The notes under the pieces: model-generated
The model's database searches: none
Told to the model about the DNA's origin: nothing
The model's input: the letters and a program-made list of their open reading frames with translations, nothing else
In this document: one piece after another, positions 1 through 35,293 of the stretch
Layout of the letters: each line of letters starts with the position of its first letter
Position numbering within the stretch: the first letter of the stretch is position 1
Translations under genes and position numbers: made by a program
From: Candidatus Woesearchaeota archaeon
Lineage (GTDB): Archaea > Nanobdellota > Nanobdellia > Woesearchaeales > UBA525
Length of the DNA: 64,000 nt
Direction: 5' to 3'
NCBI GenBank assembly: GCA_028818155.1
Contig: JAPPOH010000001.1
Span: 192,598 to 256,597, forward strand

Positions 1-3000
1 ATTGTGCGTGCGAGTCGGATGGTGATTGTCCAGGCAGCAGAAACGTCTGTGAGGTTGCTCGGTGCCTCAATCCTGGGACTGCGCAGGCGGTGTGTGTGAT
101 TGAGCCTGCTGAAGACGGCAATAGGTGTACTGATGATGGCGATATTTGCACAACTGATGTGTGTCTTGCTGGCGTGTGCACGCACAACAACAATGGCGTC
201 TGTCTCTGTACTGATGATAGCGAGTGTCCTGCAAGTGCAAACAGTTGCGAGGTAGCGAAGTGTTTCAACGCGGGAACACCTGCTGCATCCTGCGGTTTCG
301 AGAATGCGGAGGATGGGAATAGGTGTACTGATGATGGTGATATTTGCACAACTGATGTCTGCCAAGCTGGTGTCTGTGAACACAATGATAATGGTGTGTG
401 TGCGTGCCTCTCAAGTAACGATTGCCCAAGCAGTGGTAATGTGTGCGAAGAGCCATTCTGCTTTAACCCAGGCACGCCACAAGCGGTCTGTGGCTTCCAA
501 CCGAAAACTGACGGGACGCAATGTATTGATGATTTCGATATCTGTACTGCTGACGTCTGCCTCGCAGGAGTTTGTACGCACGATGATACTGGGGAGTGTG
601 ATTGTCGAATAGATGAAGACTGTCCAGAGAGTAGGAATGTCTGTGAAGATCCACTCTGCCTCAATCCTGGAACGCCGCAAGCAACGTGCACATTCCAACC
701 AAAGAGTGATGGGACGCAATGCACTGATGATAACAATGTCTGTACGGACGATGTCTGTCTCGCTGGTGTCTGTGAGCATGATGATAATGGTGCGTGTGCG
801 TGCGAGTCGGATGCTGATTGCCCAGGAAGTGCGAACAGTTGTGAGGTTGCGCGATGCTTGAATCCAGGAACGGCGCAGGCGGTGTGTGTGATCGAGAATG
901 CAGAGGATGGGAATAGCTGTGATGATGACTTTAATATTTGCACAACTGATGTGTGTCTTGCAGGAATTTGCACACACAATGATAATGGTGCGTGTGCGTG
1001 CGAGTCGGATGCTGATTGCCCAGATAATGGGAACGCGTGCCAAGAGCCGGTGTGCTTGAACCCCGGCACTGTGGATGCGACATGTGACTTCGCGCCAGCG
1101 AATGAAGGGCTCGTGTGCGGTAATGATGGAAACGAATGCACGACGGATACGTGTCAAGCCGGCGCATGTGTGAACGCGAATGTTGCTGATCAGACAATGT
1201 GCTCGGATGATAACAACCAATGCACGGATGACGTCTGCCTTGCTGGCGTGTGCACACATGACAATAACGGCGTATGTGAATGTCAAACAACGGATGATTG
1301 TACGCCGAGCACGAACGTCTGCCAGACCGTCACGTGTGTGAACCCTGGCACGGAGAATGCGTTCTGCGATACGGAATTCCTCCCGGACAATACACAATGC
1401 ACTGATGATTTCGATGTCTGTACTGCTGATGTCTGCCTCGCAGGCCAGTGTACCCATGAAGAGACTGGCGAGTGTGTCTGTGATACATGGGAAGACTGCC
1501 CAACAACTGAGAACACGTGCCAGATCCCTGTCTGTCTAAACGGGGGGACGCCTGACTCGGAGTGTGGCTTCGCTGATAACCCTGATGGTGTGACGTGCGC
1601 AAGTGATGGGGATGAGTGTACTGCTGACACGTGCCTTGCTGGTGCGTGTATCCATACAAACAATAACCTCTGTCGGTGTACCGTTGCTGATGACTGCCCT
1701 CCAAGTACGAACGAGTGTGAAGTGCCGGTGTGCGTGAACCCGGGAACAGTCGACGCGGCATGTAGCTTCGAGAACGCTCCTGATGATCTTTCATGCGCGG
1801 ATGACGGTGATGCGTGCACGGAAGATATCTGCACTGCTGGTGTCTGCACGCACAAGGATAACGGCCTCTGTGCATGTGAGTTTGATACCGATTGCCCTGC
1901 TGGCGATGCATTCTGCCAGATTCCACGATGTTTCGATGCAGGCACACCGAACGCAATCTGTGGCTTTGAGAACTTCCCTGATCAGACTGACTGCCCAGGT
2001 GATGGTGATGTCTGTACCGCTGATGTGTGTGTTGCTGGCATCTGCACACACGATAGTAACGGCCTCTGTGGTTGTTTCAACAATGATGACTGTCCAGACA
2101 ATGGGAATGAGTGTCAAGAGCCACTCTGTCTTAATCCGGGCACGGTAGACTCTGAATGTAGTTTCCAAAACCTCCCTGATGAGACGATGTGCTTGAGTGA
2201 TGACAATATCTGCACAACAGATGTGTGTGTTGCTGGCACGTGCGAACATCAAGATAAAGATGTTTGTGCCTGCGAGTCAGATGCAGAGTGCCCAGCCAGT
2301 GCCAATTCATGCGAGATCCCACGGTGCTTCAACCCAGGAACAGTCGATGCAGTTTGTGGTTTTGAAGCACTTCCTGACGACACCGCATGTGCTGATGACA
2401 ATGACCAGTGTACTGCTGATGTCTGCCTTGCTGGCGTCTGCACGCACGAGGACAACGGCCTCTGCGGCTGCAGTACCGATGATGATTGTCCAATCTGCGA
2501 GAACGAGTGTCAGAAGTCCACGTGCTTCAACCCAGGAACGCCTGAGGCGTTCTGTGACTTCGAAGACCTCCCATACGATACGCCGTGCACGCCAGATAGT
2601 AACGCATGCACACTTGATGTCTGCCGTTCTGGCGTGTGTAGTCACCCGGCAAGTAACGTGTGCCAATGCACGAAAGACAGCGACTGTCCAACTGGCGATA
2701 GCTGCCAGATCCCTCGCTGCTTTGGCAAGGGAACGATTAACGCGCAATGTGGCTTCGAGAACAAACCGGAGCTGACCACATGCGTAAATGACTTTAACCT
2801 CTGCACGGACGATATTTGTGTTGCTGGCATCTGCTCACACCTTGATAACGGTATCTGCCGATGTTCATCCAGCGATGATTGTCCAACGAGTGATAACTCC
2901 TGCGAGGAAGCACTCTGCGTGAACCCGGGAACGGAAGATTCCTATTGTGCATTCATTGACCTCCCTGATGCGAGCCAGTGTGTTGGTGATGGGGATGAGT

Positions 3001-4274
3001 GTACTGCAGATATTTGTGTTGCTGGCGTGTGTACGCACGCTGACAATGGCGCGTGCTTCTGTGATGATGATAAGGACTGCCCACGAGGCTTGAACGTCTG
3101 TAAGATTGGCAAGTGTCTCAACCCTGGCACGGTAAACGCGGTGTGTGGCTTCGAAGATAGGCCTGATAACACGCGGTGCACGAATGATGGGAACGCATGC
3201 ACAAATGATATCTGCCTTGCTGGTGTCTGCACGCATGAAGTTGACCAATCTTGTGTCTGTACAATGGACAGCCAGTGCCCACAGAGCAGTAATCCATGCG
3301 AAGAGCGCAGATGCTTTAGCCCAGGACAGAACAACGCGACGTGCGGCTTTGTCGATAAAGCAGACAACACGGCATGCCCTGATGATGGTGACGTCTGCAC
3401 GTCTGACGTCTGCCTTGCCGGTGTGTGCACGCACAGCAGTACAGGGGCATGCAACTGTAACAATGATGGTGACTGTCCTGCGAGCACGAGCGTCTGTCAG
3501 GTTGCAACGTGTTTCAACCCAGGAACCCCTGCATCATCTTGTGGCTTTGTGAACCTTGCGGATGATACAGCATGCACTGCGGACGGCACGTTCTGCACAG
3601 ATGATGTGTGCAGGAGTGGTGTGTGTGAGCATATCAAGAACAATCTCTGCGATTGCGTTGTTGATGGCGACTGCCCACGTGGCTTGAATGTCTGTATGGC
3701 AGCACTCTGTGTGAACCCTGGCACGGTGAACGCGTTCTGTGACTTTGTAGAACGCCCTGATAACACGCTCTGCACGAGTGACGGTGACGTCTGCACTTCT
3801 GATGTCTGTCAGAATGGTGTGTGTGAGCACATTGAGAATACCCTCTGCTCGTGTACGGATGATGCGCAGTGTCCTGACAACGCGAACGTCTGCCAAGTGC
3901 CGCGATGCATTGTTGACGGGAATGGTGCGCAGTGCGGCTTTGGGAACGCACTGAACTACTTACCGTGCCCTGACGGGTTGTGGTGTAATGGCGAGGAGAT
4001 CTGCTGGAACGGCGTCTGTGAGGCGCTCGAACAAGCGTGCCCTGCAGAACTCTGTGATGAGGATACGGACACGTGTACGGAGATCTGCACGGATGCATGT
4101 AACCCTGCTGAGTTCCCAGACTGTACGTCGGATAGTGCTGGCGTTGAGACGTGCGAGCTCGCGCTGGATGGCTGCTATGATATCGTGACGACTGCATGCC
4201 CTGCGGATCACGCGTGCGTGGATGGGGCTTGTGTCGAGAAATGTGGCTTTAGCGTCTCGTGCCCTGGACCATAG
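1..4274 (+). CDS. Giant secreted cysteine-rich tandem-repeat protein, 5' end lies outside the window
   Basis: The frame is open from base 3 and continuous with ORF 90..4274. It holds about 22 tandem modules of about 62 aa with the pattern CxC..D.DCP.S.N.CE...C.NPGT..A.C.F....DG..CTDD.D.CT.DVC.AG.C.H.DNG. The second half-module resembles Dictyostelium CTDC-type Cys repeats. A 45-nt perfect DNA repeat occurs at 781-825 and 979-1023. Confidence 0.85.
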   Translation, partial: CACESDGDCPGSRNVCEVARCLNPGTAQAVCVIEPAEDGNRCTDDGDICTTDVCLAGVCTHNNNGVCLCTDDSECPASANSCEVAKCFNAGTPAASCGFENAEDGNRCTDDGDICTTDVCQAGVCEHNDNGVCACLSSNDCPSSGNVCEEPFCFNPGTPQAVCGFQPKTDGTQCIDDFDICTADVCLAGVCTHDDTGECDCRIDEDCPESRNVCEDPLCLNPGTPQATCTFQPKSDGTQCTDDNNVCTDDVCLAGVCEHDDNGACACESDADCPGSANSCEVARCLNPGTAQAVCVIENAEDGNSCDDDFNICTTDVCLAGICTHNDNGACACESDADCPDNGNACQEPVCLNPGTVDATCDFAPANEGLVCGNDGNECTTDTCQAGACVNANVADQTMCSDDNNQCTDDVCLAGVCTHDNNGVCECQTTDDCTPSTNVCQTVTCVNPGTENAFCDTEFLPDNTQCTDDFDVCTADVCLAGQCTHEETGECVCDTWEDCPTTENTCQIPVCLNGGTPDSECGFADNPDGVTCASDGDECTADTCLAGACIHTNNNLCRCTVADDCPPSTNECEVPVCVNPGTVDAACSFENAPDDLSCADDGDACTEDICTAGVCTHKDNGLCACEFDTDCPAGDAFCQIPRCFDAGTPNAICGFENFPDQTDCPGDGDVCTADVCVAGICTHDSNGLCGCFNNDDCPDNGNECQEPLCLNPGTVDSECSFQNLPDETMCLSDDNICTTDVCVAGTCEHQDKDVCACESDAECPASANSCEIPRCFNPGTVDAVCGFEALPDDTACADDNDQCTADVCLAGVCTHEDNGLCGCSTDDDCPICENECQKSTCFNPGTPEAFCDFEDLPYDTPCTPDSNACTLDVCRSGVCSHPASNVCQCTKDSDCPTGDSCQIPRCFGKGTINAQCGFENKPELTTCVNDFNLCTDDICVAGICSHLDNGICRCSSSDDCPTSDNSCEEALCVNPGTEDSYCAFIDLPDASQCVGDGDECTADICVAGVCTHADNGACFCDDDKDCPRGLNVCKIGKCLNPGTVNAVCGFEDRPDNTRCTNDGNACTNDICLAGVCTHEVDQSCVCTMDSQCPQSSNPCEERRCFSPGQNNATCGFVDKADNTACPDDGDVCTSDVCLAGVCTHSSTGACNCNNDGDCPASTSVCQVATCFNPGTPASSCGFVNLADDTACTADGTFCTDDVCRSGVCEHIKNNLCDCVVDGDCPRGLNVCMAALCVNPGTVNAFCDFVERPDNTLCTSDGDVCTSDVCQNGVCEHIENTLCSCTDDAQCPDNANVCQVPRCIVDGNGAQCGFGNALNYLPCPDGLWCNGEEICWNGVCEALEQACPAELCDEDTDTCTEICTDACNPAEFPDCTSDSAGVETCELALDGCYDIVTTACPADHACVDGACVEKCGFSVSCPGP

Positions 4275-4304
4275 AAGACATTATAAACCCATTCTGTGCT
4301 CTTT

Positions 4305-4907
4305 ATGAGTATGATCCTCTGGATTCTCCTCGGTGCGGTGCTGGCATTTTTCCTCTACTGGCGCGTCTGGTTTCTCAGACGACCAAGACGAACGATACCG
4401 AAGAACGGTGTTGTCAGCCCCGCGAACGGGAAGCTGATGAAAATCATCCCGTTCCACGATGAAACTGCTGTCGTCCCGAAGGGGATGCTCGGCGAAGTGA
4501 ATGTCTTAACGAAGGATGTTGCAAAAGAAGGGTATATTCTTGTGATTCGGCTCACGCCGCTTGATGTGCACTACCAACGCGCCCCTGTCTCTGGCGCTGT
4601 TGCGAATGTCAAGTATAGAAAAGGGACGTTCAAGAATGTGGTGTCGACGAACGCAGCATACGGTGCGTTTGAAAACGAAAAGAATGAAATTCTTCTTGAT
4701 GGGACGTTCCCTATGAAGGTAGTGCAGGTCGCAGGCATTGCGTGCCGGCGCATCCGATGTGACGTGAAGAAAGATGATGTTGTGAAGAAAGGGGATGTGA
4801 TCGGACTGATTAACTTCGGGAGCCAAGTACTTGTGATTCTTCCGAAGAAGCAACTTCAGGTGCAAGAAGGGGACTATCTTGTTGATGGGGAGACGGTGCT
4901 CGTATGA
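4305..4907 (+). CDS. psd: Phosphatidylserine (archaetidylserine) decarboxylase, short archaeal type
   Basis: N-terminal TM segment, LTPLDVHYQRAPVSG and a C-terminal INFGSQV self-cleavage-like GS motif. TATA ATTATAAA at 4280-4287. In-frame alternative starts at 4296 (GTG) and 4311. Confidence 0.75.
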   Translation: MSMILWILLGAVLAFFLYWRVWFLRRPRRTIPKNGVVSPANGKLMKIIPFHDETAVVPKGMLGEVNVLTKDVAKEGYILVIRLTPLDVHYQRAPVSGAVANVKYRKGTFKNVVSTNAAYGAFENEKNEILLDGTFPMKVVQVAGIACRRIRCDVKKDDVVKKGDVIGLINFGSQVLVILPKKQLQVQEGDYLVDGETVLV

Positions 4908-30286: not shown

Positions 30287-33200
30287 ATGGGTAAGGGTGT
30301 GGTTGTACTATTCTTGTTCCTCGTGAGTCTTGCACCTGCTTTCGCGTTTCATGCAGGCGATCACTCGGTATGTTCACAAATTATCGAAGAAAATCCAGAA
30401 ATGGGTACGTGCACTTGTACGAACTCACAACCTAATTTCTTTGGATGCCTTCCAGATAATGATCCTGAGCAGTTAACTGGCGATCCACACCAGGATAGTT
30501 GTATCCCTGGAGCAAGTCCCACGTGTGATTTTAACTTTTGTGCATATGGTGCAAATTGTGGCGTGTGGGGTCAGTGCATTGTGCAGAGTGGAGAAGTCTG
30601 CTATCACCCACACGATCCGCCAGCATGTGCGTGTGAATGTGATCCTGGACTTCGCTTCTGTGAATCCGCGGGAGCCTGCTTACCCGATACTGATGGTGAT
30701 GGAACAGCTGACGGTTGCCTCCCAGCACACTGTACAGATGGTGTAATGAATGGTGATGAACTAAATACTGATTGTGGCGGCTCATGTGACGCGTGCACCT
30801 GCACGGGAAGCACTGTGAGAGCATGTGATCCTGCATGCGCAGGGACTGAAACACGAACGTGCAACACTGACGGCACGTGGTCTGCCTGGAGCGGCTGCCC
30901 GGAAGTGTGCTGTGGTGAAACTTCAGTATGTAATGATGATGTTGATTGTTGTGATGATCTAGAATGTATAGATCACAATTCTGATGGTACGAAAACTTGC
31001 GAAGAATCAGGAACTGAATGCCCACTAACTCCAACTCCAGAAACAGAAGACCGCATCTGGACAACATGCGACACCTGCGGCTACGAGCAATGGGTCTGTA
31101 CAGCAGGTTCACCAAACACATTCCAATTCGGCAGCTGCATCGAACCAACAGACGCTGACGGCGACGGCTTCTTCGCCGATGCTGGCGTGCACGGCACGTG
31201 CCCAGTCGACTGTGACGATAGCACGTACAGCGCGACAAACACGTGTGGTTGTACGACCCCAGATGATTGTCCTGATGACACAAATCTCTGCACCTACAAA
31301 ACATGCGTAGCTGGCATCTGCGGCCAAGCAAATCTCCCTGACTCAACGCCACCGATTGGCGCGGGGACGTGCCAGACAGTTACGTGTAGTGGTGGTGTAG
31401 AAGTGCCGCATGATGACAACCCATACTGTGACGATGGCGCAGGGAATGGCGTCTGTTGCGGTTGGGGTGGCTTCAGCGTGTGCTGTGGTGATGGTGCTCC
31501 CGGATACTTCTGTGCGAATGATGCAAGCGAGTGCACAGCATGTAATAATAATGGTGCACAAGACAATGGTGAGACTGGCGTCGATTGTGGCGGCGGTGGC
31601 TGTCCGAACTGTCTCGTCTGCAACTGGAACAGCATAACCGATAACGGCGAAGCGGGCACTGACTGTGGCGGTGGTGGCTGCCCTGCTTGTAGCTGTGATT
31701 TCAACAGCGCGACATACCCGTCTGGTTCTTCCATTCAGTGTGGCACTGATGAAGGTGTCTGTGAGTTTGGCACGCAAACGTGCTCTGTATCTGGCGTCTG
31801 GGGCTCCTGTACTGGTGCGCTTGGCCCAACCGAAGGAACGGAACTCTCGTGTGATGGGCAAGATAACGATTGCGATGGCACGATTGACGAGAGTCCTGTC
31901 TGCTGTGTGGATGGTGATGGGGATGGCTACCAAGTCGAAGGTGCAACGTGCGGCACGTGCACGGAATGGGATCCTATTTTCACGACAACGTGCATTCAAT
32001 GGACGTCCTGCCTCTGTGGGACGCCGGATTGCAATGATAATAATAACGCGCTTACAACAAACTGCTGTGCAACTGGCAATAACAACGGTGTCTGTGAAGC
32101 GACAGATTGTACGTGTACAGCTGCAGGTCAAGATTGCGCGGTGGTAGCTGAGTTCAACGCCGTCTGCGGCGGCTGCGGTAATAATAATGGTGCTTGTGAG
32201 GCAGGCGAGTGTAACTGTAAAGCACCTGGTCAGGATTGTGATGCAACAGTAGGTAACACGTATCCTGCATGTCCTGAGATCTGTACGGTTGGCGATAACG
32301 ATGGCGTCTGTGAGGCAGGTGAGTGTTCCTGTGACCAAGCAGGTCAGGATTGTGATGCGACGGTCACGACGCCTGCAATCTGTGTAGACACTGAAATTTG
32401 CAATAATGATCTTGATGATGACGGAAATGGAGAGTGCAATTATGATGGGCGGCGCGCGTCCAATACAGCACTGACGTGTGGCACAAAAGGCGATATCGCG
32501 TGTGCCGTTGATGTGGTCATGGCATCTATTGATACAACGAATATTTGTACGAGTAGCGAGGTTGTTGTCTCCTGTGAAGTAAGCCAGCGAGGCATTCACA
32601 GTATCACTGCAACGCTGAATGGTGCAAGCTGCTCCTTTGAAAACTGGCACCCAACAGATCCAGTCGCGAACTTCAGGTGCACTGGCGTTTCTCCTGGCGG
32701 CCTCTTTGCACAGTGTGTGATTGATGAAACAATATCCTATGTGGACACACTCGGTAGTGTGTCTGCAATCACAAACGTTCCTGTGTGTCCGACAGCAGAG
32801 ATCTGCGCGAATGATGTGGATGACGATTTCAATGGTGAGTGTGATTACGATGGCGTGGGGTGCCAGCCATTCTTCCAAAAGGGAGATATCGCGTGCCCTG
32901 TGGACATGGTGGCTGCCAGCTTCGTCTCTGGCGATCCATGCACGGGACAAGTGACTGTCTCTTGCGAGACATCCGTTCGTAATCTTGCGAGTGTCCGTGC
33001 AACGTATAATGGTGTGGGATGCTCGTGGACACACTGGCATGCAACGCAGCCGATCGCGTACTTCTCGTGTAACGCGCCCGGTATTTCTGGAGCTGGTGGC
33101 TATGGTGTCCAGTGTTCGATCGATGAGACGATGTCGTATGTAGGAACAACAGCGAGTCAGACGACGCTTGGTAGTGTCTTCTGCCCAGTGGCGGAGATTT

Positions 33201-35293
33201 GTAATAATGATATTGATGATGATTTGAATGGCGAATGTGATTATGACGGTCAGGTCGGGTGCAGTCCGATCTTGAACAAAGGAGATAGTGCATGTCCTGT
33301 GCACGTCACGAGCGCATTCCTGGATGATACAAACACGTGCATGACAAACACAGCAACCATCTCGTGTGGTGTGAGTGCAGATTACGTAGGGAGCATCAGA
33401 GCAACACTCACTGGCTCGGCCTGTTCATTCGAGAGCTGGGTGCACGCACAACTTGCACGATTCACGTGCACAGGAGTTCCTGAGGGAACGCTCACAGCAG
33501 AGTGCTTCATTGACGATACGGTGTCGTATGTTGATGGGCCGAGCATGACGGACGTCAAGGTTGTCTCGTGCCCGTGCCCGATTGATGGTGTCTGTACGCC
33601 AGGTGAGTGTGGTTGCACGATCCCTGGCCAGGATTGTAGTAATCCAATCGTGCGAGAGCCAATCTGTTGTAACGCAGATGGCGTGTGTGATACGTTCTGT
33701 GCAAACGATCCTGATTGTTGCAGTGATGGCGATAACGATGGCACATGTGAGACTGGCGAATGCTCCTGTACTGGTGTAGGCCAAGATTGTAGCGTCCCTG
33801 CTGAACACACTGCTGTCTGCTGTGTCGCTGATGGCTATTGCGAGCCGACCTGTTCTGGCACAAGTGATCCGGACTGTACGGAAGTCTGTGACAATGGTGC
33901 TGATGATAACGGGAATGGTGATATTGATTGCGATGACGTACAATGTTCCTGCGCATGCACAACAAATGCTGACTGTGGCGTGGACGGCCAGTGTAACACG
34001 TTCACCTGCTTGAATCCCGCTACGACAAGCTCCTCCTGCCAAGAAAATTTCGAACCAAGCACAACGCTCTGCACTGATGATGGGAATGAATGTACTGACA
34101 ATCATTGCTCTGGTGTGGACGCGAGCTGTGTGACAACGCTGCTAACAGGCACATCTTGTACGGGTGGCACGTGTCAGAGTGGCGTTTGTATCGTTTGCGA
34201 TAATGATGGTGATGGCTTTAACAGGACGGATGTTCCATTGTACTGTGAGAATGGCATCGATTGTGATGATACTAATGATCAAGTCACAGGCCACGCTGAG
34301 AATGTCCTCCCTGCCACGTGCTCTGATGGCTGGGATAACGACTGTGATGGCGAGGCTGACTATGATGGCTCGGGCGATGTGCTCGCGAATTACGGCCTGA
34401 CTGACCCGCTCCATGGTGACGTGAACTGTCCCGTGGATATCACAGGCGGCACGGCAGCTGATGTGAACACCGTTGCAACGTGCACAGCAAATACAGTGGA
34501 AGTCCGATGCACTGCAAACCCGCTTGTGGTGCGAAGTATCAGTGCCGAGTTTGATGGAACAAACATGGGCGACGGTGTTTTAATCGGAAGTGAGCAAGTC
34601 TTCACGATCTCACGTCCTGCTGATGGAACGTATACAGCCAGATGCTTCGTTGACCCTGCAAAATCCTACCAGACAGGCCCTGACTGGACTGATAATAGCG
34701 TGTCCGTCGATTGTTTCAAGACGGTCGAAGGTACAGTCACAGATATCACGACAACACATCCTATCGAGGATGCGACTGTGCGCATCGGCACGATCAGCAC
34801 GGGCCCTATCGAGACGACGACAGATCAGAACGGCTACTACCAATTCAGTATCGTTGAGCTCGGCAATCATGACTTCAGCGTGACGCACGAGTACTACCTC
34901 GACAACTACAAAGTGGATGAGCCGATCTTGAGCGAGCCGACAACAGTGAACTTTGCGCTCAGCCCAGAGCAGTGCACGGGAGATTGCACGTTCCTGGGCA
35001 TCTGTAATTACAAGTGTCTTGATGAGGGGGATTGCTCCATCGCGGGTGTTGACCCTGCTGATCTGGATGCGTTCAAGTCCGTGTGTGATCAGGCGACGCA
35101 TGGCGAGCCACGATTCTTTAACGCGACGCACGACGCGATCTGTTGCACGGGAGGGATTGAACCGAATAACGTCAGGAAGACACCACTCGTGATCGAGAGT
35201 TGCACAGAGCAGCTGATCCAGCACAAGAAGCTCGTCGAGTATAACGGGAAGTTACACCAGTTAACGATCGTCTCGTACGAGAAGTGCGAGTAG
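30287..35293 (+). CDS. Giant (1668 aa) secreted mosaic cysteine-rich surface protein
   Basis: Signal MGKGVVVLFLFLVSLAPAFA. MopE-like CDGQDNDCDGTIDE. About six G-DNDG-CE-GEC-C-GQDC units. Three tandem ~133-aa modules starting ICNNDxDDDxNGECDYDG (period about 400 nt at 32393, 32798, 33193) plus a fourth at about 34320. CTDDGNECTDNHC (CTDC-like). CarboxypepD_reg-like VEGTVTD...DQNGYYQF near the C-terminus. Confidence 0.85.
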   Translation: MGKGVVVLFLFLVSLAPAFAFHAGDHSVCSQIIEENPEMGTCTCTNSQPNFFGCLPDNDPEQLTGDPHQDSCIPGASPTCDFNFCAYGANCGVWGQCIVQSGEVCYHPHDPPACACECDPGLRFCESAGACLPDTDGDGTADGCLPAHCTDGVMNGDELNTDCGGSCDACTCTGSTVRACDPACAGTETRTCNTDGTWSAWSGCPEVCCGETSVCNDDVDCCDDLECIDHNSDGTKTCEESGTECPLTPTPETEDRIWTTCDTCGYEQWVCTAGSPNTFQFGSCIEPTDADGDGFFADAGVHGTCPVDCDDSTYSATNTCGCTTPDDCPDDTNLCTYKTCVAGICGQANLPDSTPPIGAGTCQTVTCSGGVEVPHDDNPYCDDGAGNGVCCGWGGFSVCCGDGAPGYFCANDASECTACNNNGAQDNGETGVDCGGGGCPNCLVCNWNSITDNGEAGTDCGGGGCPACSCDFNSATYPSGSSIQCGTDEGVCEFGTQTCSVSGVWGSCTGALGPTEGTELSCDGQDNDCDGTIDESPVCCVDGDGDGYQVEGATCGTCTEWDPIFTTTCIQWTSCLCGTPDCNDNNNALTTNCCATGNNNGVCEATDCTCTAAGQDCAVVAEFNAVCGGCGNNNGACEAGECNCKAPGQDCDATVGNTYPACPEICTVGDNDGVCEAGECSCDQAGQDCDATVTTPAICVDTEICNNDLDDDGNGECNYDGRRASNTALTCGTKGDIACAVDVVMASIDTTNICTSSEVVVSCEVSQRGIHSITATLNGASCSFENWHPTDPVANFRCTGVSPGGLFAQCVIDETISYVDTLGSVSAITNVPVCPTAEICANDVDDDFNGECDYDGVGCQPFFQKGDIACPVDMVAASFVSGDPCTGQVTVSCETSVRNLASVRATYNGVGCSWTHWHATQPIAYFSCNAPGISGAGGYGVQCSIDETMSYVGTTASQTTLGSVFCPVAEICNNDIDDDLNGECDYDGQVGCSPILNKGDSACPVHVTSAFLDDTNTCMTNTATISCGVSADYVGSIRATLTGSACSFESWVHAQLARFTCTGVPEGTLTAECFIDDTVSYVDGPSMTDVKVVSCPCPIDGVCTPGECGCTIPGQDCSNPIVREPICCNADGVCDTFCANDPDCCSDGDNDGTCETGECSCTGVGQDCSVPAEHTAVCCVADGYCEPTCSGTSDPDCTEVCDNGADDNGNGDIDCDDVQCSCACTTNADCGVDGQCNTFTCLNPATTSSSCQENFEPSTTLCTDDGNECTDNHCSGVDASCVTTLLTGTSCTGGTCQSGVCIVCDNDGDGFNRTDVPLYCENGIDCDDTNDQVTGHAENVLPATCSDGWDNDCDGEADYDGSGDVLANYGLTDPLHGDVNCPVDITGGTAADVNTVATCTANTVEVRCTANPLVVRSISAEFDGTNMGDGVLIGSEQVFTISRPADGTYTARCFVDPAKSYQTGPDWTDNSVSVDCFKTVEGTVTDITTTHPIEDATVRIGTISTGPIETTTDQNGYYQFSIVELGNHDFSVTHEYYLDNYKVDEPILSEPTTVNFALSPEQCTGDCTFLGICNYKCLDEGDCSIAGVDPADLDAFKSVCDQATHGEPRFFNATHDAICCTGGIEPNNVRKTPLVIESCTEQLIQHKKLVEYNGKLHQLTIVSYEKCE

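Follow-up and report, generated by a model that had tools for sequence, protein, structure and literature searches.

We describe a giant cysteine-repeat protein whose gene runs into the 5′ end of a 64,000-nt stretch of DNA (hereafter the window; contig C15, JAPPOH010000001.1, positions 192598-256597) from a Candidatus Woesearchaeota archaeon, represented by a genome bin of 1.64 Mb in 17 contigs that is 87% complete. To judge from its sequence, the product appears to be a surface or matrix protein of an unusual make, confined to its species and built from a repeat type already known in bacteria and slime moulds. On balance, the sequence and the structural models lead us to favour a Sec-exported, very acidic, disulfide-braced repeat protein. 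On or around the cell of this small-genome, DPANN-type (Diapherotrites, Parvarchaeota, Aenigmarchaeota, Nanoarchaeota and Nanohaloarchaeota) archaeon it would make up an extracellular stalk or fibre, long and stiff, with a part in structure or attachment. Its distinctive traits are the cysteine load in a reduced-genome archaeon, a near-private repeat unit (A), the strict alternation of that unit with a second one (B), restriction at the level of the species, and a near-total absence of N-x-S/T sequons.

Within the window, a plus-strand frame is open without interruption from base 3 to a stop at 4272-4274 (1,423 codons) and runs off the 5′ end. The full gene occupies C15 187725-196871 (L009 9726-18872) and encodes 3,048 aa; its first 4,873 nt precede the window, which carries the C-terminal 47% only. 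The nearest in-frame stop upstream is at C15:187640, and the first ATG after it is the one at 187725. The first-pass annotation, made from the window sequence, had rightly placed the N-terminus outside the window, whereas its length of more than 1394 aa had been counted from an internal GTG and falls far short of the true one. An identical 3,048-aa product with the same start, called independently and lacking Pfam annotation, is present on a 258-kb scaffold of a public metagenome assembly (ENA record ERZ23496502, scaffold_4), which is possibly the same assembly as the genome studied here. A TATA-like element, TTTATATT, lies 26-33 nt before the ATG, a spacing that fits a leaderless archaeal mRNA.

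The protein is a nearly pure array of Cys-rich modules, as had been recognized at first pass: 453 of its 3,048 residues are Cys (14.9%), as are 218 of the 1,423 in the window part (15.3%). Unit A is ∼38 aa long with six Cys (CxC-x5-C(P)-x6-C-x4-C-xNPGT-x4-C), and unit B is ∼28 aa long with four (C-x2-DGN-x-CT-x-D-x-C-x2-G-x-C-x-H). A Cys-rich N-region of ∼235 aa is followed by 34 A and 51 B units (∼85 in all) and a Cys-rich tail; 33 of the 34 A units fit the pattern, the remaining one being the degenerate first unit at residues 235-265. The N-terminal half has one to five B units after each A (BBBBB-ABBB-AB-ABBB-...) and includes three hybrid units, A′ (CxCQxNGDCxDGDVCTSDVCLNPGTxNAVC), while from residue 1560 onward A and B alternate strictly. 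In the window part, 19 full A-B modules come first, with a period of 66 aa or 198 nt, and one of them carries an additional B half-unit of 28 aa. A half-module, an A that stands alone, closes the array, and a Cys-rich tail of 102 aa follows it; the earlier estimate of about 22 modules of ∼62 aa with about eight Cys each was near without being exact. The invariant columns in an alignment of 18 modules (alignment A1) are ten Cys (C1, C3, C9, C16, C21, C31, C42, C49, C54 and C59) together with G25, D45, T50, D52, G57 and H61. The invariant Cys count is even in every unit, six in A and four in B; one module with 11 Cys is an exception to the even counts. A and B have in common the core spacing C-x6-C-x4-C, and hhalign sets DCPxxxNxCxxPxC of the A profile against CxxDGNxCTxDxC of the B profile (E 7.9e-5, probability 61%). 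This shared spacing, the profile alignment and the A′ hybrids suggest that A is a diverged, enlarged B. The motif GCxDxVxTTCPA occurs both in the terminal tail and in the N-terminal region of the protein.

Assignment of unit B to a known family depends on which part of the protein is scanned. Dicty_CTDC (PF00526), a model of 24 positions with a gathering cut-off of 27 bits, stays below that cut-off on every window piece, scoring 11.8-13.5 bits on single and double modules and at most 14.1 bits on four pieces of 340-396 aa. For the whole window protein, hmmscan against Pfam returns no family even at E<=10, a silence that is probably an artefact of filtering or bias correction. Yet residues 236-591, upstream of the window (L009 10431-11498; 356 aa) and rich in B-B-B runs, reach 42.5 bits (E 5.6e-11), over the cut-off, and BLASTP aligns this segment with window 3-1190 at 40% identity (E 3e-75). 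Since the segment that passes is homologous to the window part, we conclude from these comparisons that B is a divergent CTDC-type repeat. Genome-wide, 27 of the 28 PF00526 matches (E<=1, 11-22 bits, model positions 2-22) fall in the giant gene, nine of them in the window. The first-pass annotation had likened one half of the module to the slime-mould CTDC repeat and had offered a blank Pfam search as grounds for dropping the idea; taken literally the window sequence is blank, but the upstream segment of the same protein upholds the likeness indirectly. Other families fare less well: NCBIfam TIGR04201 (Myxo_Cys_RPT) matches one stretch at 16.4 bits (E 0.0072), below its 25-bit cut-off, Disintegrin (PF00200) matches no piece of the protein, and scans of the protein and its pieces found no EGF or other Cys-repeat family and no Pfam metal-binding family. 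That a whole-protein scan is blank while a sub-segment passes a curated threshold suggests that repetitive Cys-rich proteins can be missed systematically by routine annotation.

AlphaFold2, supplied with paralogous modules as the alignment, models one module at a predicted local distance difference test score (pLDDT) of 88.4 and a predicted template modelling score (pTM) of 0.60, and two modules at a pLDDT of 75.9 and a pTM of 0.41. The predicted strands, 17-22 and 30-35 in A and 50-55 and 58-63 in B, make two beta-hairpins per module. Each unit is thus predicted to be one hairpin and the 66-aa module two stacked hairpins, and the low pTM of the two-module model is compatible with loosely coupled beads. 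A PDB sequence search with three modules gave no match at E<=10, and Foldseek found no solved structure resembling the module, its best matches being the Cys-rich region of the Entamoeba Gal/GalNAc lectin (E 0.05, 0.55), ADAM10 and disintegrins. Dicty_CTDC is itself among the repeat families without known structure in a modelling survey (PMC8078820). With a confident predicted fold and no solved counterpart, the 66-aa module is a tractable structural target.

The protein begins with MRGTLVALIVALAILPGAVAVG, followed by LGGPC. This start combines a single basic residue with a hydrophobic core of 19 residues, a break at Pro-Gly and the motif A-V-A. By eye it is a typical and cleavable-looking Sec signal peptide; looking upstream for such a signal had been proposed at first pass, and the search was rewarded. 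A type IV pilin-like signal, to which the 'RG' at residues 2-3 might point, was considered and rejected, again by eye and with no predictor, as the +1 Thr and the downstream P-G...A-V-A suit Sec better. Hydrophobic 19-mer windows are confined to residues 3-25 of the whole protein. Acidic residues (D+E) number 466 (15%) against 57 K+R, unlike the proteome overall, which is not acidic.

Sequons are almost missing. Only two N-x-S/T sites occur in the 3,048 aa, compared with 38.8 ± 5.6 (minimum 18) in 2,000 composition-preserving shuffles, and the reversed motif occurs 36 times in the same protein. Column-wise shuffling of the module alignment gives 5.9 ± 1.9 sequons against one observed, with 0.6% of shuffles equally low. 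Sequon density is 2-6.5 per 100 aa in the genome's Cys-poor giants, against 0.07 in the Cys-repeat protein. Ten open reading frames (ORFs) are 400 aa or longer and contain 5% Cys or more; seven of these have an observed/expected N-x-S/T ratio of at most 0.36, and several Cys-poor giants have ratios of 2.6-3.3; examples of the two groups are window 30287-35293 (C15 222884-227890), C16 12124-17709 and C5 14480-21066 versus C2 35813-71209, C14 35913-39650 and C15 166460-170101. Over all ORFs of at least 400 aa, Cys content and sequon depletion are not significantly correlated (Spearman -0.03), and the pattern is limited to the Cys-rich large ORFs. The two ORF groups may be alternative ways to stabilize surface proteins, and the near absence of sequons here, set against their abundance in the genome's other giants, suggests two alternative strategies of surface building.

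At scores above the Pfam cut-off, the genome has two genes for VKOR and three domains of the DsbA-like family Thioredoxin_4, likely an extracytoplasmic disulfide-forming system whose members could oxidize exported cysteines. Given its export signal, its even invariant Cys counts and the oxidizing machinery encoded in the same genome, the giant protein is predicted to belong to the disulfide-bonded extracellular class. With 453 Cys it offers a test case for extracellular oxidative folding on a large scale, namely whether archaea with small genomes manage it and by what means; both VKOR and DsbA-like proteins are encoded.

In the stalk or fibre that we favour, the Sec signal would export the protein and all Cys would be paired, ∼226 intramolecular disulfides locking the ∼85 mini-domains. 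The array would then be a protease-resistant, extended string instead of a globule, with a length above 100 nm as a rough guess from typical mini-domain sizes. The near absence of sequons would reflect selection against glycosylation, which would hinder the folding or packing of small knotted units. In relatives, B-type units would serve as spacers for catalytic or binding heads. In the giant protein, the string of units and the distinct Cys-rich regions at its two ends would themselves be the functional entity (stalk, fibre or matrix component). Because the protein has no membrane anchor, one or other of these terminal regions would provide the hold on the surface. The proposed disulfide string, spacer role and selection against glycosylation draw on the export signal, the even Cys counts, the hairpins, the acidity, the oxidases and the lack of sequons, and we also count in favour of the proposal that neighbouring genes encode other secreted proteins (VWA-PKD, Ig-like domains). 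An adhesin or a role in cell-cell contact, the candidate functions named at first pass, would be plausible. Several findings weigh against the stalk or fibre: the protein shows no C-terminal anchor, membrane anchor or sorting signal and so offers no evident means of surface retention; Pfam and NCBIfam scans recognized no binding or catalytic head domain anywhere in it; and, as the close relatives that were searched lack the gene (see below), it does not belong to an attachment apparatus conserved among them.

A cleavable-type signal peptide without an anchor would also suit a matrix or coat protein, released and then cross-linked by intermolecular disulfides into a coat or biofilm matrix, in the manner of the Dictyostelium spore-coat proteins from which the repeat family takes its name; it would then not be an adhesin acting as a single molecule. 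The repeat family is found in Dictyostelium coat and matrix proteins, and slime-mould Cys-rich proteins are described as having intra- and inter-chain disulfides around the cellulose layer (PMC3068167); relatives of the giant protein, moreover, often carry carbohydrate-binding modules. However, an even number of invariant Cys in each unit would leave no obvious free Cys for cross-links, the one 11-Cys module excepted, and no polysaccharide-binding domain was found in the giant protein itself. Such archaea are also not known to form cysts or spores, and we consider this explanation unlikely.

A broader and bolder proposal, decidedly unlikely in our judgement, is that this archaeon builds giant secreted proteins in two exclusive ways, either glycan-coated and Cys-poor or disulfide-knotted and sequon-free. 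The Cys-repeat protein would be the extreme case of the second, a species-specific disulfide-locked fibre of at least 100 nm; it would have arisen by amplification in situ from a single A-B pair, like those that stand isolated in other proteins, and would mediate contact with a partner cell. Were this true, ∼226 extracellular disulfides in one chain would be exceptional for a reduced-genome archaeon.

The same composition could instead serve to bind metals or calcium, the thiolates together with Asp and Glu binding Zn, Fe, Cu, Cd or Ca so as to sequester or detoxify these ions or to nucleate minerals, and the Cys being reduced or metal-bound, as might be expected outside an anaerobe. Besides the 14.9% Cys, the 15% Asp+Glu and the mere 57 basic residues, this would account for the Asp45, Asp52 and His61 that are invariant in each module; in addition, the N-region has a MopE-like motif (DADGDG...CG..DC..D, by eye), and one relative matches a Pfam family of putative metal-binding motifs. 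Strictly even Cys counts at fixed spacings are, however, typical of disulfide knots, the hairpin model was confident when obtained without metals, VKOR and DsbA-like genes are present, and the giant protein matches no metal-binding family in Pfam. We regard metal binding as quite improbable.

Searches of 8 genomes of the same genus, 10 of the same family and ∼42 of the same order did not find the giant gene. A sample of 400 high-quality genomes of the phylum was also searched, and its one match, a weak and A′-like one, was in a genome of the same order (G025). Scans of genome and metagenome contig collections likewise found no relative above 37% identity (relatives 29-37%). The gene is single-copy: hidden Markov models (HMMs) of A and B, run against all ORFs of the genome, match it alone, and for this reason the Cys-rich giant at window 30287-35293 is not a paralogue. 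The G+C content at its third codon positions does not stand out from that of the genome (z = -0.66). The gene also shares in the marked avoidance of ACC and GCC throughout the genome, where they make up 11% of Thr codons and 8% of Ala codons, respectively. A DPANN archaeon (Woesearchaeota) would fit the presence of CarS, the small size of the genome and the many sister families whose genomes are small as well. Lineage-specific amplification of an old, sporadically distributed unit appears the best reading of these sequence data, and recent import and contamination are unlikely; as a leading account, recent horizontal transfer is rejected in view of the native codon usage.

More specifically, the gene might be a recent import of a Myxococcota-type bacterial gene, or belong to a mis-binned or chimeric assembly, and so not be an archaeal feature at all. 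The most similar proteins from named genomes do come from a delta-proteobacterium and from Myxococcales, and the gene's absence from all 18 same-genus and same-family genomes searched, like the single weak match among the 400 of the phylum, would be expected on that account. But the best outside matches have only ∼30% identity, and through the repeats alone. Moreover, the gene lies mid-contig on a 258-kb contig, directly upstream of the archaeal lipid genes psd, CDP-alcohol phosphatidyltransferase (pssA), DUF212 and carS, which begin 22-37 nt past its stop on the same strand (window 4275-4311). Third-position composition and ACC/GCC avoidance are those of the genome, an archaeal TATA box stands at the leaderless distance, and related A′-type units occur in two other small archaeal genomes. 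Import or mis-binning is, in our view, very improbable.

At the DNA level, the 45-nt exact repeat reported at first pass is present, with its copies at the boundaries of modules 4/5 and 5/6; it is the longest exact repeat in the window, and the longest of the whole gene, at 98 nt, is found in the part before the window. The description of the DNA repeats as near-identical was nevertheless overstated: pairwise DNA identity between modules averages 57% and peaks at 78% (module 1 versus module 5), and the copies have drifted too far apart for Tandem Repeats Finder to register the array. Codon positions 1 and 2 are 66% identical between modules, whereas position 3 is 40% identical (28% expected from composition), a pattern that points to selection on the protein and not to recent homogenization. 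Ongoing recombination or expansion, with a risk of assembly collapse, had also been claimed; the few short exact stretches speak weakly for it and the old, diverged modules against it, and with modules of this divergence a collapse by a short-read assembler appears unlikely in the window part. That the number of units is altogether an artefact of a collapsed or expanded array is highly improbable, the least likely of the explanations weighed here, for although the exact repeats and the origin in a 17-contig metagenome bin allow it, the modules differ by 22-54% in DNA and so can be placed uniquely by short reads, the frame is open over 9.1 kb with perfect 198-nt phasing, and the identical product is found in the public metagenome record (possibly, as noted, the same assembly).

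Coordinates are collected in Table 1. Upstream of the giant gene, on the minus strand (L009 277-5684; C15 178276-183683), we also observed genes for a 1,137-aa protein with VWA and PKD domains and for two Ig-like/DUF1573 proteins, which form a further cluster of secreted proteins a few kb away.

Table 1. Features of the giant Cys-repeat gene and disulfide-forming candidates elsewhere in the genome
Feature	Location	Strand	Basis
C-terminal 1,423 codons and stop of the 3,048-codon gene	window 1..4274	+	open frame, upstream extension, ATG, signal peptide MRGTLVALIVALAILPGAVAVG
A-B modules 1-5, 66 aa each, 10 Cys	window 3..992	+	module parsing, alignment A1
Exact 45-nt direct repeat, copy 1, module 4/5 boundary	window 781..825	+	exact-repeat search
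Exact 45-nt direct repeat, copy 2, module 5/6 boundary, 198 nt downstream	window 979..1023	+	exact-repeat search
Module 6, A-B-B, 94 aa, 14 Cys	window 993..1274	+	module parsing
A-B modules 7-19, 66 aa except one of 65 aa	window 1275..3845	+	each 91-104 bits against the module profile
Last degenerate A, no B partner (CSCTDDAQCPDNANVCQVPRCIVDGNGAQC...)	window 3846..3965	+	module parsing
Third Cys unit, single copy (CPDGLWCNGEEICWNGVCEALEQACPAELCDEDTDTC), first 37 residues of the tail	window 3966..4076	+	tail-region search matches P0163 and P0164
Terminal 65-aa Cys-rich tail, ending ...CGFSVSCPGP, no hydrophobic anchor	window 4077..4271	+	hydrophobicity scan
VKOR	C4:106655-107017; C12:951-1343		Pfam
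Thioredoxin_4	C13:157143-157625; C15:122253-123281 (two domains in one 417-aa frame)		Pfam

To place the units more widely, the 66-aa module profile was scored against 1.84 billion representative proteins. Only 398 reach E<=0.001, and most of these match only profile positions ∼36-63, the B half. We fetched 161 relatives, 159 of which have B-type units of at least 15 bits; two have even one A-like unit, and none fits the A pattern, so that unit A appears nearly private to the giant gene. One of the two is P0040, whose A-B pair (CSSPSDCPNNNVCTYPVCNNASTPSAYC...CADDGNSCTTDVCSSGSCTH) seems to include the only clear A unit outside the giant gene; this protein (1,230 aa) was seen to combine thrombospondin-type-1-like repeats (W..CS..CGGG.Q.R.C, by eye) with isolated A-B pairs. 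PF00526 is found in 25 of the 50 relatives scanned (E<=0.001, best 2.2e-24), and several database matches come with a precomputed PF00526 assignment. The domains that stand beside B-type units are FG-GAP, glycoside hydrolases, carbohydrate-binding modules, lectin-like domains and S8 protease, a placing that would suit a spacer. Matches in named genomes come from three bacteria of Myxococcota type (a delta-proteobacterium and two Myxococcales) and one uncultured archaeon. The label 'eukaryote-like' that the repeats had been given is therefore, on this sequence sampling, a misnomer for what appears to be a mainly prokaryotic family: a building block named after slime moulds but widespread in prokaryotes, and hugely amplified in a DPANN-type archaeon.

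Two archaeal proteins carry A′-like units. In the uncultured archaeon (CAYFVC010000047.1; L021 4717-7242), the C-terminal half of an 841-aa secreted S8 protease, subtilisin-like by its motifs, consists of Cys units of three kinds, CNGxExC, CTxDxC and A′-like (DDCNDGDECTEDTCNNPGTC), which appears to show such units as an enzyme appendage in another archaeon. In G025 (contig C9 of that genome; L034 3-1922), a secreted protein of at least 640 aa that runs off the contig end has A′-like units (ECYNNADCFDFNPCTDDVCMNPGTANSYCQY) among other Cys repeats. The tail of the giant protein has relatives of its own: the unit at window 3966-4076 (DGLWCNGEEIC...CPxxxCDE) is one copy of a ∼50-aa unit (CxxDxDCDDGLYCNGxExCxxGxCxxGxDPCPGQxCDE) that occurs in tens of tandem copies in P0163 (2,590 aa) and P0164 (2,280 aa). 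These bacterial-type giant proteins lack Pfam annotation and close with a sorting-signal-like C-terminus (GGGCxCG...LLLLLLGLAVLR..RR; Gly-Cys, Leu-rich and Arg-rich).

Among known systems, the giant Cys-repeat protein can be compared first with the members of Dicty_CTDC, which include dictyostelid extracellular matrix and spore-coat proteins and many uncharacterized bacterial giant proteins. Like them it is secreted, Cys-rich and tandemly repeated, and its B unit fits positions 2-22 of the 24 in the model. Unlike them it has an archaeal host, the CTDC units of its window half each alternate with a six-Cys A, it has no mucin-like or proline-rich segments and no recognizable non-repeat domain, and its window units score below the Pfam cut-off both singly and together. 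The giant surface proteins of DPANN archaea (SPEARE of Nanohaloarchaeota, compared by description) are similarly very large, secreted and made by small-genome archaea that are presumably contact-dependent; judged against that description, the Cys-repeat protein appears not to belong to a SPEARE-like class, having no Pfam family on its C-terminal 340 aa and no hydrophobic segment other than the N-terminal signal. Literature searches on giant Cys-rich proteins of DPANN archaea or Woesearchaeota brought up no relevant account. The giants of the same genome (2,785-5,406 aa) differ in being Cys-poor (0.4-1.6%, against 14.9%) and sequon-rich, and no domains shared with them were detected. Nearer in layout is P0002 (2,034 aa, uncharacterized), the best database match, at 389 bits against the module profile and 32% identity. 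There, too, CTDC-type B units and small Cys units of another kind take turns along an extended tandem array, 25 PF00200 stretches each being followed by a CTDC-like unit before a weak dockerin-like end; the partner unit is disintegrin-like (ECDPxEVCDG...CP.D), however, and not CxC...DCP...NPGT, and the giant protein has no Disintegrin match. In its predicted build, finally, the protein resembles the Cys-rich region of the Entamoeba histolytica Gal/GalNAc lectin heavy chain and the snake-venom disintegrins and ADAM10, all of which consist of small disulfide-braced beta-hairpin units in series.

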